NCBI GenBank assembly: GCA_051746505.1
Contig: JBNJFE010000026.1
Span: 1-10,442 of the forward strand
DNA from: Campylobacterota bacterium
GTDB lineage: Bacteria > Campylobacterota > Campylobacteria > Campylobacterales > Sulfurovaceae
Reading direction: 5' to 3'
Length of the DNA stretch: 10,442 nucleotides
Below are positions 4,088 to 10,288 of this stretch, in pieces. Under the pieces are notes generated by a model. It did no database searches, was not told the DNA's origin, and was given only the letters and a program-made list of their open reading frames with translations. Every line of letters begins with the position of its first letter. The stretch's first letter is position 1. The position numbers and the translations under genes were made by a program.

Positions 4088-4118
4088 AGCAGTTTCCTTT
4101 TCCTATTTGAGACTCGGT

Positions 4119-4140
4119 ATTTCTTGTGACTTCAAGAAAT
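4119..4140. promoter_or_regulatory. Inverted repeat ATTTCTTG-N6-CAAGAAAT in the acs 5' region
   Basis: The repeat has 8-bp perfect arms separated by 6 bp and lies 32-53 bp upstream of the acs start codon at 4087. It is a candidate operator or 5'UTR element. Because the region is AT-rich, the repeat could be a chance occurrence. Confidence 0.25.
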
Positions 4141-4333
4141 ATATCAGTATAACTATATTTTTATAACATAGCAATAGTGTAGCATCTCTTTAAAAGTTGT
4201 GTATTTTTCTTACAACTTCCTGCTGAGTGTGAATTTTAGTAACATATGGCAGCGCTTAGGGTTGCAAAGCGTAGAAATAATAATATTGTTTAAGAAAAAT
4301 TTGAGCAAAAATGTGTAGTTCTGGCTGTGCGGG

Positions 4334-4349
4334 CATCGGCGCGCCGATG
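4334..4349. repeat. 16-bp perfect GC-rich palindrome CATCGGCGCGCCGATG
   Basis: The palindrome is read directly from the sequence. It is embedded in an otherwise AT-rich intergenic region and is followed by a -10-like tcATAAT. It may be a binding site for a dimeric regulator. Confidence 0.5.
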
Positions 4350-4408
4350 TTCATAATACGTTAATGAAAAGTTTATAAATCATTAAATTTTTAAGCGTAC
4401 AATTTCAC

Positions 4409-4422
4409 TGTCCCCCAAGCAA
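4409..4422 (+). repeat. 14-bp direct repeat TGTCCCCCAAGCAA, copy 1
   Basis: An identical 14-mer recurs at 4655-4668, 246 bp downstream in the same regulatory region. Confidence 0.6.
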
Positions 4423-4482
4423 TACCCTCCCGGTACCGTCTTCAGGTGCCGGGCCCCGAATTTACGGACAAGGAGGCCGGCC

Positions 4483-4830
4483 ATGTGCAAAAAAACAGCG
4501 ATCACGACAGTTAGCGCATTTTTGTCAGCGGTCCGAGGCATCCATCCAAAGCAGTGGGACCAGACAGTAAAAGCGCACGCGGGCAAAGCGTCTGCTTGGT
4601 TTCGATCCGGTCAGACAAACGATACCCTGATACGACAATTTTTCCATCTTGACTTGTCCCCCAAGCAAAATGAACAACTCCTTTTATTGCGGATCAAACA
4701 CAGGCAGCCCGTCCCTTCTCCCGCTGGCGCTTTGAAGGCTCACGGCTTTGAAAAAGACAGATATATCGATATAATGCCCCAAAAAAAGACACAACAAGCC
4801 AAAGCCCGGTCAATCGATAACAGACAGTGA
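4483..4830 (+). CDS. Hypothetical small basic protein of 115 aa; it is uncertain whether this ORF is coding
   Basis: A perfect Shine-Dalgarno AAGGAGG sits 6 nt before the ATG, and the ORF ends 13 nt before the response-regulator start. The protein has no recognisable domain and looks low-complexity or disordered, especially in its C-terminal half. A near-consensus sigma70-type promoter lies inside its 3' end. The region may instead be a structured leader or sRNA. Confidence 0.3.
   Translation: MCKKTAITTVSAFLSAVRGIHPKQWDQTVKAHAGKASAWFRSGQTNDTLIRQFFHLDLSPKQNEQLLLLRIKHRQPVPSPAGALKAHGFEKDRYIDIMPQKKTQQAKARSIDNRQ
4655..4668 (+). repeat. 14-bp direct repeat TGTCCCCCAAGCAA, copy 2
   Basis: This copy is identical to 4409-4422. 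It lies inside the questionable small ORF and about 80 bp upstream of the predicted -35 at 4748. Confidence 0.6.
4748..4775 (+). promoter_or_regulatory. Sigma70-type promoter TTGAAA-N16-TATAAT for the response-regulator and kinase operon
   Basis: TTGAAA lies at 4748-4753 and TATAAT at 4770-4775, with a 16-bp spacer. A 12-bp palindrome TATATCGATATA at 4762-4773 overlaps the -10 box and is a possible autoregulatory operator. The predicted leader of about 60 nt contains the RBS aaggata ahead of the GTG at 4844. Confidence 0.4.
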
Positions 4831-4843
4831 AAGGATAGAAACG

Positions 4844-5533: not shown

Positions 5534-6787
5534 TTGCCCAAAACAAACTCTATTTTCTTTACCATTTCGCTTGTGTTTGCCATCGCGGGATTTTCTATTT
5601 TGATCAGTTTTTATTTTCTGCATCAAGCCAATACGATGCAGCATCAAAGCTTTTTGGAAAGAAAGCACTTTGCCGTTTCGCGTATCCTCATCCGCGCCCA
5701 CAACGAGGATATGATTTCCAAGGACCTTTTATCCTCCCTGGATTCGCTTAATTACAAACTCAAAACCGATCTGCAGCAGATCGCGGATTTTTTGCAGGAT
5801 GAGGATGTGGTGCTGCTGCACTCAAAAGATTTGCAAAACGGGCAAAGTGTCAATATTTACCAGATGCGAAACCATCATTATATCCTGGTCAACTCCTCAG
5901 GCAGTCTGTATCTGCTCAAAGACAAAACGCCGGTCGTGTTTTTCAACCCCGCCATTATCATTATCTTTTTAGCCATTATGGCGGTATTTATCCTTATATA
6001 CCTGACCACGGTGCGCAAACTGTATCCCATCAAAACGCTGAAAAACCATATTAAAAAGCTGGGCAATGAATCTTTTGATATCAAGTACAATATCAAAGGC
6101 AGCGATGAAATATCCGAACTGGCCCAGGAGTTTGCCAAGAGTTCCAAACGTTTGGAAAAACTCAAAGAATCGCGCAATATTTTTATACGCAATATCATGC
6201 ATGAACTCAAAACCCCCATCATGAAAGGCAAGCTTTTAAACGAATTGCCAAAGACCGAAGATAACAATGAAAAGATGAAGGAAGTTTTTTACCGGCTGGA
6301 AAATTTGATCAACGAGTTTGCCAGTATCGAGGAAGTGATCGCCGCATCAGAAAGTATCACGATGAAAAGCTACTCCATAGCCGACGTGATCGATAACGCA
6401 AAAGATATGCTGCTGTATGACGAAGACAGTGAGCGCATTGTTGTCCAAAACGCTTCTGCGTGCACCCAGAACGTTACGCTTAACTTCAAGCTTGCCTCTA
6501 TCGCGTTTAAAAACCTCCTTGATAATGCGATGAAATACGCAGAGGATAAAAAGGTCACGATCGTATGCCGCACGGATGCGGTGAGCTTTCAAAACAGGGC
6601 TAAGCCCTTAAGCGAAGATTTACAAACCTATTTTGAACCCTTTGTCAAAGACGCCAAGCAAAATAGTTCCAGCTTTGGCCTGGGATTGTATATCGTGAAA
6701 AAAATCCTGGAAGTACACGGGTTTGATTTAGCCTATACCCATGAACAGGGATACAATATCTTTACGGTGCGCTTTACAGATCGCTGA
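5534..6787 (+). CDS. Sensor histidine kinase with 2 TM helices, a periplasmic domain of about 105 aa, HAMP, and HisKA plus HATPase domains
   Basis: The H-box is IMHELKTPI, the N-box LLDNAMKYA and the G2 box GLGLYIVKKIL. TM helices lie at about 8-30 and 138-160. A TTG start follows the regulator's TAA stop directly in the same frame, and a GTG at 5573 is the alternative. The G1 (DxGxG) box is not recognisable. Confidence 0.85.
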   Translation: MPKTNSIFFTISLVFAIAGFSILISFYFLHQANTMQHQSFLERKHFAVSRILIRAHNEDMISKDLLSSLDSLNYKLKTDLQQIADFLQDEDVVLLHSKDLQNGQSVNIYQMRNHHYILVNSSGSLYLLKDKTPVVFFNPAIIIIFLAIMAVFILIYLTTVRKLYPIKTLKNHIKKLGNESFDIKYNIKGSDEISELAQEFAKSSKRLEKLKESRNIFIRNIMHELKTPIMKGKLLNELPKTEDNNEKMKEVFYRLENLINEFASIEEVIAASESITMKSYSIADVIDNAKDMLLYDEDSERIVVQNASACTQNVTLNFKLASIAFKNLLDNAMKYAEDKKVTIVCRTDAVSFQNRAKPLSEDLQTYFEPFVKDAKQNSSSFGLGLYIVKKILEVHGFDLAYTHEQGYNIFTVRFTDR

Positions 6788-7226
6788 AATCGATATCGCT
6801 GCTGTCAAAGGAATCGTTTTTGGTAAAAAAGGCGGGTTCCTTGCCGCCGGCGTGATCGAGCAGATCGCAAAGCCGATACAGCAGTTTGTGCGCATCTTTG
6901 TCCGTTGCCTTTAACAGCGTGGACGCCAGCTTTGGATTGTGCTTTTGATCAAGCAGTCTGGTATAGAGGTTTTTGATCGCAAAATGCGACTCTTCCAGGT
7001 CCGTATACTGGTAAAAAAGCAGAAAATACCCCTCTTCTAACTCCAGTACCGTGTCACTGGGGCGCGTCATTTTGTCCAGCATCTGTTTGTCAAGTGAAGA
7101 ATCGGCCCGCAGTATAGCGACGCTGACGGGAACGTCGTATTTGATGAGCTGGTTGAGAAAGTGCGGCAGGGTCTGCTGCGTGGTTTCACTCCAGGGTTTG
7201 ATGCGTTGAAAACAGTGTTGGGCCAT
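6774..7226 (-). CDS. Hypothetical 150-aa protein with a degenerate GGDEF-like (nucleotidyl-cyclase-fold) core
   Basis: The segment VAILRADSSLDKQMLDKMTRPSDTVLELEEGYFLLFYQYTDLEES follows the GGDEF-domain pattern (vallDiD...R..D...RlGGDEFlll..t.le.a), with LEEGY in place of GGDEF. The DxLTGLxNR onset is absent. The ORF converges with the kinase 3' end and overlaps it by 14 bp, and it is divergent from the EncFtn gene. Confidence 0.5.
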   Translation of the reverse strand: MAQHCFQRIKPWSETTQQTLPHFLNQLIKYDVPVSVAILRADSSLDKQMLDKMTRPSDTVLELEEGYFLLFYQYTDLEESHFAIKNLYTRLLDQKHNPKLASTLLKATDKDAHKLLYRLCDLLDHAGGKEPAFFTKNDSFDSSDIDFSDL

Positions 7227-7307
7227 GGCGGTCTCGCTTTTTTCTTTTCATTGTACTAAAAAATGTCTGTTAAAGAAAACTTTGGTACCATATTTGCAAA
7301 GGCTTTG

Positions 7308-7322
7308 TAAAAAAGCTTTTTA
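7308..7322. promoter_or_regulatory. Palindrome TAAAAAAGCTTTTTA in the divergent promoter region upstream of the encapsulin operon
   Basis: The AAAAAGCTTTTT core at 7310-7321 is a perfect palindrome lying 25-35 bp upstream of the EncFtn ATG. The inverted repeat CTTTG-N12-CAAAG lies just 5' of it. It could be an operator for a metal or redox regulator, or it could be chance in AT-rich DNA. Confidence 0.2.
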
Positions 7323-7345
7323 CTCCAACGAAAAAGGAAACGAAA

Positions 7346-7717
7346 ATGGCTCATGAAGGTTTTCACGAAGATCCAAGTCAATTATCAAATTACGCAAAAG
7401 ATTATCACAGAATCATAGAAAGTACGATGGAAGAACTTGAAGCGGTAGACTGGTACAACCAGCGGGCCGAGTGCGCCACCGACGAGGAGGCCAGGCGCAT
7501 TATGGAACACAACCGTGATGAAGAGATTGAACACGCCTGCATGGGTATTGAGTGGCTGCGCAAAAATTCGCCCGTGTGGGATGAGATGCTAAGGGAGTTT
7601 TTATTTAAAGACGGCGATATCGTCGGCAACGAAGAAGCAATGACCGGCGGTGAAAGCCAGGAAAGCGAGCCCGCGGGCAGCGGCGGTACGCTCAATATCG
7701 GAAAAAACAGCAGATAA
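7346..7717 (+). CDS. Encapsulated ferritin-like protein (EncFtn), an encapsulin cargo with a C-terminal targeting peptide
   Basis: The core MEELEAVDWYNQRAECATDEEARRIMEHNRDEEIEHACMGIEWLRKNSPVWDEMLREFLF matches the EncFtn or Flp four-helix ferroxidase family, with conserved Glu and His iron ligands in the ExxH contexts. The C-terminus is a Gly/Ser/Glu-rich linker ending in GSGGTLNIGKNSR, which resembles the encapsulin cargo-loading peptide consensus (S/T)LxIGxL(K/R). The RBS aaggaaa lies 5 nt upstream. Confidence 0.85.
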   Translation: MAHEGFHEDPSQLSNYAKDYHRIIESTMEELEAVDWYNQRAECATDEEARRIMEHNRDEEIEHACMGIEWLRKNSPVWDEMLREFLFKDGDIVGNEEAMTGGESQESEPAGSGGTLNIGKNSR

Positions 7718-7727
7718 AGGAGAGATA

Positions 7728-8531
7728 ATGGAAATTTTAAACAGAGTAAACGCCCCTTTCGGTGAGGGCGTATGGAGTGAAATCGATGAGGTTATGGGGG
7801 AGTTTTTAGGCAAACGCCTTAACCTTAGAGCCGCGGTTGATTTCAAAGACGGGTATGATTATCATACTGACGGTATTTCCACGGGAGAAATTAAATCCGT
7901 CTCAAATAAAAACGATCTGAGCATTCAGGCAAGAGTGCCTTTAAATATGATCGAAATCAAAAAGCGTTTTAAACTGGGCGGCAGCGTGATCGAAGATATC
8001 AAACGGGGTATGAGCGATTATGACGACAGCGCGTTTGCCGATGCTGCTAACGCCTTTGCCGCAAGTGAAAACGGTATGATCCTGCAAGGTATGAAACAAG
8101 CTGGAATCGAGGGGATCATGAGCAGCGGCGAAGTCAAAAGCGTCAGTGTGAATTCTGCCAAGGATATCCTCTCAGCCGTGGCCAAGGGCCTTGGTACGTT
8201 TAACAAAGAGTTTGTCGGCGGTCCCTTTAAACTCGTGATATCAAGTGCGACCATGGCCAAGCTGTATACGGAATTTTTTGACGGTATCAGCGTCAAAGCC
8301 AAGCTTGATGATATCCTGGGCGCAGGCAATATCGTAGTTAACGAAGATATCGGTGACAAAGACGCGCTGCTGCTTTCGCAGCAGGGCGGAGACTTTGAAT
8401 TTTACAGCGGGCTTGACGTAAGCGTGGGCTTTGAGAAAGAGACCAAAGACGGTGTGGAACTGTTTATAACCCAGACATGCGCGTTTCGAGTGCTTGGCCC
8501 AGAAGCGGCTATAGCCATCAAGATGAAATAA
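7728..8531 (+). CDS. Family-1 encapsulin nanocompartment shell protein (HK97 fold)
   Basis: The 267-aa product runs MEILNRVNAPF...GGDFEFYSGLDVSVGFEKETKDGVELFITQTCAFRVLGPEAAIAIKMK and aligns along its full length with Thermotoga maritima encapsulin, including the C-terminal GGDF...LFITETF motif. The ATG at 7728 has the RBS AAAGGAGAG and sits 10 nt after the EncFtn stop. The tabulated start at 7650 would overlap EncFtn and is rejected. Confidence 0.9.
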   Translation: MEILNRVNAPFGEGVWSEIDEVMGEFLGKRLNLRAAVDFKDGYDYHTDGISTGEIKSVSNKNDLSIQARVPLNMIEIKKRFKLGGSVIEDIKRGMSDYDDSAFADAANAFAASENGMILQGMKQAGIEGIMSSGEVKSVSVNSAKDILSAVAKGLGTFNKEFVGGPFKLVISSATMAKLYTEFFDGISVKAKLDDILGAGNIVVNEDIGDKDALLLSQQGGDFEFYSGLDVSVGFEKETKDGVELFITQTCAFRVLGPEAAIAIKMK

Positions 8532-8541
8532 AGAGGTCTTT

Positions 8542-8763
8542 ATGACAAAAGAAGAGTTGGCCAAATACAACGGCAAAGAGGGTAATAAAGCGTATGTCGG
8601 CTTTGAGGGCAAGGTATATGATGTTACCGCCAGTGCGTTGTGGAAAGATGGCGTACACAAAAAGAAACTGCACGCGGGCAATGACCTTACCGGCGAGATG
8701 GAAAAGGCACCCCATGGCAAAGAAGTGCTGGAGCGCTTTGAAGTCGTGGATACTTTAGAGTAG
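8542..8763 (+). CDS. Cytochrome-b5-like haem/steroid-binding-domain protein (COG4892-like), 73 aa
   Basis: The protein reads EELAKYNGKEGNKAYVGFEGKVYDVTASALWKDGVH...HAGNDLTGEMEKAPHGKEVLERF, the typical pattern of small prokaryotic cytochrome-b5-domain proteins, including the LxxYNGKDG...VYDVT...W..G.H...AG.DLT motif. The RBS aagagg lies 5 nt upstream and the gene begins 10 nt after the encapsulin stop, so it is probably co-transcribed. Confidence 0.7.
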   Translation: MTKEELAKYNGKEGNKAYVGFEGKVYDVTASALWKDGVHKKKLHAGNDLTGEMEKAPHGKEVLERFEVVDTLE

Positions 8764-8766
8764 GCC

Positions 8767-9585
8767 TTAAGCCCTTTTGCGCCGCTGCAGGAGTTTTTGC
8801 AGCGCCAAAACGATAAAAAGCGTCAATGACGCTACCGCGATCACGGCAGCCCCGCTGCTGAGATCGTAGGTGTAGGCTAGTCCCAGGCCGCTTAACATAA
8901 AAATAAGCGAAATAAAAAACGAAGCGATCATCATGTGCGCCAAAGAGTTGACAAAACGCTCGGCCAAAAACGGCGGGATCGTCAGCAGCGCGATGATAAG
9001 AATCAGGCCCACCGCCTGGATGCTGATAATAACACCAAGTGAGATCAATACGATCATGAGCATATAAAAGCTTTTGGCGTTCACCCCCTGCAGGGCCGCG
9101 AATTCACTGTCAAAACTCACGCTTAAAAACTCTTTGTAAAAGAGTATGACCAGTCCCACAATCAGGGTATCAAGAGTAGCCATCATCCATATGTCAAAAT
9201 CCCCCAGGCTCAGGATGCTTCCAAACAGATAACTCATCAGTTCAACGTTGTAGCCGGGCGTAAGATCCAGCAGTATGATCCCCGCAGCCATCCCAAACGC
9301 CCAGATCGCGCCGATAACGGTATCAATGCGCTCTTTGGAGTGAAACGAAAGCATGGCGATAATAACACCAAAGACCACCGCGCTTGCCAGCGCCCCCAGG
9401 ATAGGCGTAAAACCCAAAAACACCGCCAGCCCCAGTCCGCTGTAGCTGCCGTGCGCGATGCCGCCTGCGACAAAGACCATCTTGTTTACCACCGTCAGCG
9501 AACCGATCACCGCTGTGGCTATACTGACCAAAAACGCCGCGATCAGAGCGTTTTGGATGAAATCATACTGCAGCAGTTCAAACAT
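8767..9585 (-). CDS. znuB: ABC-3 family metal (Zn/Mn) ABC transporter permease
   Basis: The product begins MFELLQYDFIQNALIAAFLVSIATAVIGS, has 8-9 TM helices and ends QRRKRA. The start is placed at the ATG at 9585 inside an ATGTTTGA overlap with the upstream ATPase stop. The tabulated 9663 start would overlap the ATPase by 85 nt and is rejected. Metal specificity cannot be read from the sequence, so the znu symbol is tentative. Confidence 0.85.
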   Translation of the reverse strand: MFELLQYDFIQNALIAAFLVSIATAVIGSLTVVNKMVFVAGGIAHGSYSGLGLAVFLGFTPILGALASAVVFGVIIAMLSFHSKERIDTVIGAIWAFGMAAGIILLDLTPGYNVELMSYLFGSILSLGDFDIWMMATLDTLIVGLVILFYKEFLSVSFDSEFAALQGVNAKSFYMLMIVLISLGVIISIQAVGLILIIALLTIPPFLAERFVNSLAHMMIASFFISLIFMLSGLGLAYTYDLSSGAAVIAVASLTLFIVLALQKLLQRRKRA

Positions 9586-10288
9586 GATCGCATCCTGCGT
9601 GAATGAGTTCGACCGGGCAGACGTGATCACTGTCAAAGTCTTCTCTTTTTTTACTGATAGCATTGTGCATATGCAGTTTGTGGTCTATATGCGCGATCTT
9701 TGTCGCGTATCCCAGCAGTACCGCCGTATCGTGGCTGACGATGATAATGCCCACTTTTTTATTGAGCTTTTTGAGCAGGTCGTAGGTTTGCTGTTTGGAC
9801 TGCCTGTCCAGGCTGGCGGTGGGCTCATCCAGCAGCAGGATGTCAGCTTCGCTGCACAGGGCCCTGGCGATAAAGGCGCGCTGGCGCTGGCCTCCGGAGA
9901 GTTTGGAAATGTTTTGATCCGCAAAATCTTCCATGCCGACTGCTTCCAGGGCTTCATAGGCTTTGGCTTTATCTTTTTTGGTAAAAAAGCCAAACTTTTT
10001 TTGCGACAGGCGGCCCATGAGAACCGCGTCTAAAACCTTCATGGGAAAGTTTTTACCCGCCTGGGTGTTTTGGGGCACATACGAGAGTTTGATCCCCTTT
10101 TTAATACTGATGCGGCCGCTTTTTGGCGTAAGCAGTCCCAAAATCAGCTTTATCAGCGTGGATTTACCTCCGCCGTTTGGCCCGATAACGGCTAAAAAAT
10201 CGCTTTTGTCATAATGCAGCGTAATATCCTGCAGCACCGTTTCCCCGTCATAGGCAAAGCTTATGTTGTCCAGTTCCAGATCATGCAC
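9578..10288 (-). CDS. znuC: Metal ABC transporter ATP-binding protein
   Basis: Walker A is GPNGGGKST, the ABC signature LSGGQRQR, Walker B ILLLDEP and the H-loop IIVSHD. The start is a GTG at 10288, 1 nt after the stop of the upstream periplasmic-binding-protein gene. Confidence 0.9.
   Translation of the reverse strand: MHDLELDNISFAYDGETVLQDITLHYDKSDFLAVIGPNGGGKSTLIKLILGLLTPKSGRISIKKGIKLSYVPQNTQAGKNFPMKVLDAVLMGRLSQKKFGFFTKKDKAKAYEALEAVGMEDFADQNISKLSGGQRQRAFIARALCSEADILLLDEPTASLDRQSKQQTYDLLKKLNKKVGIIIVSHDTAVLLGYATKIAHIDHKLHMHNAISKKREDFDSDHVCPVELIHAGCDHV

Follow-up and report, generated by a model that had tools for sequence, protein, structure and literature searches.

The window discussed here, by which we mean the whole stretch of 10,442 nucleotides (nt) analysed from contig JBNJFE010000026.1 of a Campylobacterota bacterium, carries three genes arranged head to tail on its forward strand between positions 7346 and 8763. 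The first, encFtn (7346-7717), encodes an encapsulated ferritin cargo of 123 residues; the second (7728-8531) encodes a family-1 encapsulin shell protein of 267 residues, similar in length to that of Thermotoga maritima; and the third, cytb5M (8542-8763), encodes a 73-residue, soluble, MAPR-like cytochrome b5. EncFtn was recognized by PF22277 (2e-37) and TIGR04535 (140 bits against a cut-off of 125), the shell by PF04454 (1e-50) and NF041155, 'family 1 encapsulin shell' (170 bits against a cut-off of 100), and the third open reading frame (ORF) by PF00173, Cyt-b5 (2e-8; 34.6 bits against a cut-off of 23.7). These matches lie far above threshold and are not due to chance. The original prediction for this DNA, made from the letters alone, had described an EncFtn gene, a family-1 shell gene and a 73-residue Cyt-b5 ORF following after 10 nt with a Shine-Dalgarno (SD) motif of its own; coordinates and profile matches confirm that description in every detail. 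We regard the locus as a nanocompartment operon of known type, carrying in addition a haem accessory that is lineage-specific and had not been described before.

The first two genes constitute an ordinary family-1 EncFtn encapsulin system, in which every defining feature tested at the sequence level was found. The translation of encFtn contains the ferroxidase motif HxxxEExEH as HNRDEEIEH (motif compared with PMC11202242), and ends in the targeting peptide GTLNIGKNSR (7685-7714, forward strand), recognized by motif comparison with the EncFtn proteins of other Campylobacterota. Most of 18 such proteins terminate in G(S/T)LNIG(K/N)N(K/R)K, with variants such as GLKIG or KTIG in a few of them; the motif is a lineage variant paralleling the canonical GSLGIGSL of distant phyla. 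The best solved relatives of the shell are the T. maritima encapsulins (approximately 6e-38). The mechanical call places the beginning of the shell ORF at 7650, but 60 homologues and the T. maritima structures have their residue 1 aligned with the ATG at 7728, which was accordingly taken as the real start. Residue 97 of the shell (8016-8018) is a serine aligned to the flavin-stacking tryptophan of T. maritima (W90 in LaFrance 2021, corresponding to W87 in 3DKT), and the consensus of 37 related shells has no aromatic residue at this position. An alignment of 37 shell proteins, run against one genome per species (185,579 species), found 80 loci, of which Campylobacterota contributed 20 and other phyla 60; EncFtn immediately precedes the shell in 76. 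One of these loci, L009, belongs to an uncultured Campylobacterales metagenome-assembled genome that is a near-identical sister of the window (shell 94% and flanking proteins 93.6-99.3% identical, in the same order), and served as a reference for conservation.

The three genes are tightly coupled. Both junctions measure 10 nt and place an SD motif 5 nt before the ATG: AAGGAG (7717-7722), overlapping the encFtn stop codon, at the encFtn/shell spacer (7718-7727), and AAGAGG (8531-8536) at the shell/cytb5M spacer (8532-8541). The latter spacer is identical in L009, while in L004, a population variant, the junction differs in sequence but is still short, and has AGGAGG and a GTG start codon. A gap of 10 nt leaves no room for a terminator or promoter between shell and cytb5M, and a consensus scan of the forward strand returned no promoter-like site from 7866 to the cytb5M start, in agreement with the earlier expectation that neither element would occur between 8531 and 8542. 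Upstream of encFtn, the intergenic region 7227-7345 (forward strand) presumably contains the operon promoter and 5' untranslated region; it carries an SD-like AAAGGAA at 7333-7339 and differs from L009 at one of 119 positions. No sigma-70 consensus site was found in this region by consensus scan, and our inspection for a Fur- or PerR-type box upstream of encFtn returned nothing convincing, only short palindromes. Downstream, the same type of scan alone suggests a weak, putative terminator-like hairpin on the forward strand (8774-8793, followed by TTTTT to 8798). It begins 11 nt after the cytb5M stop, within the 3' end of a convergent permease gene, and L009 preserves most of it, the differences being at 8775 and 8781-8782. 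Given its weakness and its position inside the permease gene, we accorded it little weight.

Relative to L009, the ratio of non-synonymous to synonymous substitution rates (dN/dS) is 0.05 for encFtn, 0.049 for the shell and 0.079 for cytb5M, with dS between 0.37 and 0.58; cytb5M is, under such purifying selection, a maintained coding gene. The dS of the shell (0.58) exceeds that of its two operon partners (0.37). GC content is similar across the three genes (0.47-0.50; cytb5M 0.48), and a recent foreign origin of cytb5M was rejected, there being no GC anomaly. We infer from the arrangement of the genes that co-transcription of encFtn, the shell gene (enc) and cytb5M is likely.

The third protein is a clear member of the cytb5M class and not a classical cytochrome b5. 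It matches PDB entries 6VZ6 (Methanococcoides burtonii) at 4e-22 and 6NZX (Hadesarchaea) at 9e-21, with 56-57% identity, whereas classical b5 proteins match it at only 0.05-0.8. These two structures define cytb5M, a class of prokaryotic relatives of the eukaryotic MAPR/PGRMC proteins, and in the crystals haem is bound by the axial ligands H42 and H61 with a serine contact, S34 (bioRxiv 10.1101/2021.11.30.470528). The residues of the window protein aligned to these positions of 6VZ6 are H39 (8656-8658) and H58 (8713-8715), the predicted haem ligands, and Ser31 (8632-8634), the haem-contacting serine. Across an alignment of 21 diverse family members both histidines are invariant and Ser31 is conserved in at least 90%. 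An AlphaFold model of the protein, with a mean predicted local distance difference test (pLDDT) score of 94, superimposes on 6VZ6 with a TM-score of 0.94 (root-mean-square deviation 1.2 Å) and on 6NZX with 0.93, as against approximately 0.69 for classical b5. PF00173 is the sole Pfam match, and the JGI name of homologues, 'predicted heme/steroid binding protein', carries the COG4892 wording, which bears out the earlier description of the protein as COG4892-like. Likewise, the suggestion that it is a small haem-binding protein has gained support from homology to haem-bound structures, conserved ligands and the fold model; haem binding is predicted on these grounds, and the product is very probably a haem protein.

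Neither a signal peptide nor a membrane segment could be read from the 73 residues, and they contain no targeting motif of the G(S/T)LxIG, LxIG or TVGSL-like type. In the absence of such a motif, a role as encapsulated (secondary) cargo was ruled out. A Bfd-type ferredoxin was also rejected, the [2Fe-2S] BFD-like family PF04324 not being matched. The third product is thus predicted to be a soluble, cytoplasmic haem b protein that would not be cargo by the known loading mechanism. Our literature searches found no physiological role assigned to a prokaryotic cytb5M.

Further insight comes from the neighbourhoods in which related proteins occur. We examined 80 metagenomic loci (483 kb in total) containing the cytb5M domains most similar to the window protein, at 49-63% identity; the family as a whole comprises more than 2,000 clusters at 50% identity in a full HMMER search. 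The domain is stand-alone in 56 of the 80 loci and part of a fused protein in the other 24. Of the 56 stand-alone genes, 35 (63%, a figure that describes this sample and not the whole family) are preceded on their own strand by a gene for a ferritin-like protein, DpsL, compared with 0 of 24 fused ones (Fisher p = 3e-8); examples include L110:5362-6228, L105:5368-6219, L103:4556-6243 and L099:4061-6252. A further instance, outside these 80 loci, is L170:2742-3626. This ferritin is of the archaeal, DPS-like type, matching PF00210, exceeding the cut-offs of NF009990 and NF040955, and matching PDB entries 7STW and 2CLB at 1e-65 to 1e-77. A ZupT-like ZIP permease is present in 30 of the 80 loci, often between DpsL and cytb5M, and 14 contain a divergent Fur-family regulator whose best match is PerR. 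An unbiased Pfam census of the immediately upstream gene gave Ferritin in 25 of 49 cases, ZIP in seven of 49 and other families in two or fewer. For background, the 80 encapsulin loci were compared with the same profiles, which hit one (DpsL), one (ZIP) and two (Fur) of them. Two relatives found by a separate route have comparable surroundings: P0337 (59% identical) is part of a POR-DpsL-cytb5M-rubrerythrin-desulfoferrodoxin operon, and P0312 (60% identical) of an FMN reductase-ZIP-cytb5M operon.

The taxa represented among the DpsL-linked loci include Theionarchaea, Thermoplasmata and a Clostridia-containing cluster. Their DpsL proteins are mutually 84-93% identical, while the linked cytb5M proteins have a median identity of 66% and a minimum of 50%, and fall into eight clusters at 70%. 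Such divergence despite linkage indicates that the association is old or has been repeatedly selected, and part of it may reflect a horizontally spread cassette. The word 'ferritin' does not occur in the paper defining cytb5M, and the DpsL-cytb5M linkage was not found in targeted literature searches. The cytb5M family is, in this sample, recurrently tied to iron cages of the ferritin superfamily, the cage in the window being an encapsulated ferritin, and the linkage of stand-alone members to DpsL makes it plausible that this haem protein family is functionally connected with ferritin-like cages.

Several other features of these loci deserve mention. The fused class (seen at L089:5992-6693, L092, L096, L097:1132-3522, L144:1332-3797 and L130:4001-6313) includes proteins in which an N-terminal cytb5M domain precedes a DUF2231 membrane domain; some are followed by a NifU gene with a BFD-like [2Fe-2S] domain. 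One protein of the DUF2231 type is further fused to pyruvate:ferredoxin oxidoreductase (POR) domains, and two domains occur within multihaem cytochrome c proteins. Relatives of 86 residues, 59-62% identical to the window protein (L008:431-1163 and L007:2-595), share a conserved tail, PEPPKKKKWG(L/M)F, and their named members are Desulfuromonadales; in both loci the gene stands in tandem with a second, longer Cyt-b5 gene. A convergent radical-SAM gene adjoins cytb5M in L008, in L169 (a Desulfuromonas relative) and in L172, which encodes a 105-residue form. Where DpsL-linked members read HQVLH, the window protein has instead the lysine-rich loop HKKKLH.

What might a haem protein contribute to an encapsulin operon? 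In described systems, EncFtn decamers are loaded by their C-terminal peptide, the HxxxEExEH centre oxidizes Fe(II), and the iron mineralizes within the shell (PMC8346489, PMC11202242). Release of the stored iron requires electrons, for which no donor is known in EncFtn systems (PMC8610991, PMC11202242). In vitro iron-release tests of the flavin-binding T. maritima shell were negative and led their authors to suggest an unidentified auxiliary protein (PMC8610991), and a 2024 review also invokes an unidentified electron carrier for EncFtn encapsulins (PMC11202242). We propose that, in a single lineage of uncultured Campylobacterales, the genes encFtn, enc and cytb5M are transcribed as one unit; that EncFtn would be loaded through GTLNIGKNSR into the T. 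maritima-like family-1 shell, there oxidizing Fe(II) so that mineral iron is stored within; and that cytb5M would act as a cytoplasmic, non-encapsulated, bis-histidine haem b carrier of single electrons, serving the ferritin-like cage from outside. In one variant its electrons would mobilize stored Fe(III) as Fe(II); in another they would re-reduce the di-iron centre or mineral iron under peroxide stress. Whether cytb5M touches the shell, in which direction and to what end its electrons flow, and which reductase would feed it are all matters of inference. Taken whole, an operon whose third product is the external electron carrier of the EncFtn-encapsulin cage is the likeliest reading, though a tentative one to which we give slightly less than an even chance. 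Stand-alone relatives probably play the same role for the DpsL mini-ferritins of many anaerobes. The corresponding generalization, that stand-alone cytb5M proteins are dedicated, trans-acting haem electron carriers of haem-less ferritin-superfamily cages (DpsL in many anaerobic archaea and bacteria, encapsulated ferritin here), is possible, though we hold it to be doubtful.

Several observations weigh against cytb5M as the carrier for this cage. Firstly, the arrangement is rare. Among the 80 species-level EncFtn-encapsulin loci, cytb5M occurs within 6 kb only in L009, and a broad hidden Markov model (88 domains, E ≤ 1) again recovered L009 alone. The remaining 19 Campylobacterota species have the EncFtn-shell pair amid unrelated genes and without cytb5M, and the gene following the shell varies among them, encoding DJ-1/PfpI, AIR-synthase-like, ZIP permease, glutathione peroxidase, polysaccharide deacetylase or proteins of no family; the third slot is variable in this phylum. 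Viewed from the other side, encapsulin or EncFtn is present in none of the 80 nearest cytb5M loci. The conserved Cyt-b5 gene that the original prediction proposed to look for downstream of encapsulins in related genomes is therefore confined to the sister genome, and the co-occurrence on which that hypothesis depended is largely lacking, whether one starts from encapsulins or from cytb5M, which speaks against it. The three-gene operon stands as far as its packing is concerned, with 10-nt gaps and a hairpin only after cytb5M; its standing as a conserved three-gene encapsulin operon or accessory is ruled out. The encFtn-enc-cytb5M arrangement is specific to one lineage of uncultured Campylobacterales.

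Secondly, the DpsL evidence is at some remove from the window. The 80-locus sample was picked by similarity together with two peptide patterns and a seven-sequence alignment. A neighbour-joining tree of the 73-residue domain, calculated without support values, groups the window protein with the 86-residue Desulfuromonadales proteins and near 6VZ6, outside the main DpsL-linked group, and the Desulfuromonadales genes have no ferritin neighbour; a further relative, P0375, is isolated too. Because of this grouping and these ferritin-less genes, the inference from DpsL to the window holds at the level of the family and not of the orthologue. Thirdly, the mechanism meets physical difficulties. The protein is too large for the pores of a T=1 shell and is untargeted, and no electron path through the shell can be named. 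A relay via a shell-bound flavin, as in T. maritima, was not supported, the stacking tryptophan being a serine here; electrons might enter by long-range tunnelling from a protein docked at a pore, or through a small diffusible mediator. Finally, no reductase for the haem protein is encoded within the operon; the FMN reductase that adjoins ZIP-cytb5M in L174 offers a lead.

Rarity of this kind would be expected if cytb5M were a passenger, that is, a general small electron carrier that landed behind a mobile encFtn-enc cassette in one lineage and is co-transcribed with it while serving unrelated partners. Confinement to a single lineage is in keeping with this, as are the different neighbourhoods and downstream genes of the EncFtn-Enc pair in every other Campylobacterota species, the many contexts of cytb5M domains (fusions to DUF2231, POR and multihaem cytochromes, as well as monocistronic genes) and the lack of ferritin context among the closest tree neighbours. 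A passenger would, however, not be expected to have a junction that matches the cargo/shell junction exactly in its 10 nt and SD motif, nor to be under selection of similar strength to its two neighbours, and the ferritin link of the family lowers the odds of a chance landing beside another ferritin-like system. We consider a passenger role unlikely, while taking it seriously.

The same neighbourhoods could be read as those of a rubredoxin-like stress carrier, feeding enzymes that detoxify peroxide or superoxide and co-regulated with DpsL and EncFtn-encapsulin cages without reducing them. The regulator at DpsL-cytb5M loci is PerR-like, rubrerythrin and desulfoferrodoxin follow cytb5M in L170 and L171, a catalase-peroxidase is the upstream gene in two cytb5M loci, and glutathione peroxidase or DJ-1/PfpI follows the shell in other Campylobacterota. 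Yet the dominant and nearest neighbour of cytb5M is a ferritin and not a peroxidase, and the window contains no peroxidase or superoxide reductase. Carriage of electrons to stress enzymes therefore strikes us as rather improbable. As a separate observation, the shell gene of other Campylobacterota is often followed by one related to stress or metals, encoding ZIP permease, glutathione peroxidase or DJ-1/PfpI (L016:6849-7691, L027:6795-7328, L011:6911-7465 and L012:6914-7468), and the start of the glutathione peroxidase gene overlaps the shell stop.

A non-redox function in haem handling, as a buffer, chaperone or sensor linking haem or iron status to the storage compartment in the manner proposed for eukaryotic MAPR, has little to commend it. 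While the protein falls in the MAPR-related branch of the b5 fold, and iron-homeostasis neighbourhoods would suit a haem or iron sensor, its predicted ligation is the hexacoordinate, bis-histidine type of electron-transfer b5 and the solved cytb5M proteins and not the tyrosine ligation of MAPR, and the fusion partners of the domain in the 80-locus sample are redox modules (POR, multihaem cytochromes and DUF2231). Partnership with the convergent znuABC-like transporter, for example in reducing or handling imported metal, is barely credible: its gene ends 3 nt after the cytb5M stop and ZIP metal permeases are frequent cytb5M neighbours elsewhere, but convergent orientation rules out co-transcription, a Zur-like regulator of its own lies beyond the window, and zinc is not redox-active.

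The transporter itself occupies 8767-10288 on the reverse strand, with an ABC-3 permease (8767-9663; PF00950, 8e-64) and an ATPase (9578-10288; PF00005); AztA/AztB are its best NCBIfam matches, below cut-off. Beyond the 3' end of the window, as seen in L009:8563-9851 and L001:2383-3237, follow a ZnuA-like binding protein and a divergent 119-residue Fur-family (Zur-like) ORF, while no Fur-family gene lies within the window. The ZnuA and Zur-like genes indicate that this right-hand neighbour is a separately regulated zinc/metal uptake operon. To the left, an ORF of 150 residues (6774-7226, reverse strand), divergent from encFtn, has no Pfam or NCBIfam match and shows 99% conservation between the window and L009; 14 nt at its 3' end are shared with the end of the histidine kinase gene. 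A gap of approximately 750 nt (4088-4843) between the acetyl-CoA synthetase gene (reverse strand) and the response regulator gene (forward strand) contains only a 115-residue ORF with no family match. Identity between the window and L009 is 94% for the shell (L009:6001-6801), 93% for cytb5M and 94% for the ABC ATPase, and 97-99% for EncFtn, the response regulator, the kinase, the 150-residue ORF, Acs and the permease. A search for structured RNA gave no Rfam match anywhere in the window.

If cytb5M is indeed a dedicated carrier, the consequences would be threefold: a prokaryotic cytb5M would have its first physiological role, the 'missing electron carrier' by which EncFtn encapsulins release iron would be supplied, and cytb5M would do from outside what built-in haem and Bfd do for bacterioferritin. 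Should co-regulation or chance alone account for the link, what remains is an ordinary encapsulin operon that carries, in one lineage, a passenger gene. By itself the window yields a modest finding; together with the DpsL linkage, which suggests a wider partnership between this haem protein family and ferritin-like cages, it bears on which protein reduces iron in cages that lack haem. Only Myxococcus xanthus has a demonstrated encapsulin reductase, an internal cargo (PMC11126975), and the present locus offers a concrete, expressible candidate carrier of 73 residues with close relatives of known crystal structure.

Comparison with known systems places the locus as follows. The EncFtn (Flp) systems of T. 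maritima, Rhodospirillum rubrum and Haliangium ochraceum share with it a cargo gene directly upstream, a C-terminal peptide, the HxxxEExEH motif and a shell of approximately 265 residues. It differs from them in the variant targeting peptide GTLNIGKN, in a shell without the T. maritima flavin-stacking tryptophan and in gene number: described Flp systems are two-gene units (PMC8346489), whereas a third, tightly coupled haem b gene is present here. The original prediction knew of no such partner in described encapsulin systems, and our literature searches, which found no paper linking cytochrome b5 or COG4892 to encapsulins, concur.

The IMEF encapsulin operons of Firmicutes likewise combine an iron-storing encapsulin with an extra small redox protein, in their case a Bfd-like [2Fe-2S] ferredoxin proposed to mobilize stored iron (PMC8346489). 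That protein is of the 2Fe-2S Fer2_BFD type, carries an N-terminal TVGSL targeting-like motif, co-purifies with the shell and is conserved across many IMEF operons; cytb5M is a predicted haem b protein of b5 fold, has no such motif and stands beside encapsulin in one lineage. The EncD protein of M. xanthus, a flavin ferric reductase that is encapsulated and has been shown to liberate Fe(II) (PMC11126975), resembles the role proposed for cytb5M in being a dedicated redox protein of an iron-storage encapsulin. EncD, however, is a targeted internal cargo receiving electrons from diffusible NAD(P)H, whereas cytb5M is untargeted, haem-based and would need a protein or small-molecule reductant. The BfrB-Bfd pair of Pseudomonas aeruginosa provides a haem-mediated entry of electrons into a ferritin-type cage for reductive release, the analogy drawn in the original prediction, with the difference that the bacterioferritin haem is built in between subunits while the ferredoxin docks outside; in the window the haem would belong to a separate protein of 8 kDa, and it is a shell of HK97 fold, enclosing EncFtn, that forms the cage.

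Among cytb5M proteins, 6NZX and 6VZ6 share with the window protein the fold, the bis-histidine ligands and the serine. The DpsL-(ZupT)-cytb5M operons resemble the locus in organization, having a stand-alone cytb5M gene last and an iron-cage gene at the head. The cages differ, DpsL being a 12-mer, Dps-like mini-ferritin and the cage here EncFtn within an encapsulin, and EncFtn and DpsL have no pairwise sequence similarity; moreover, DpsL operons often include ZIP and PerR, while the window has no ZIP, PerR or upstream DpsL gene. By analogy with these systems, cytb5M may work like partners of the Bfd or EncD type without belonging to their families, and is best read as a candidate third kind of redox accessory beside the IMEF ferredoxin and EncD.

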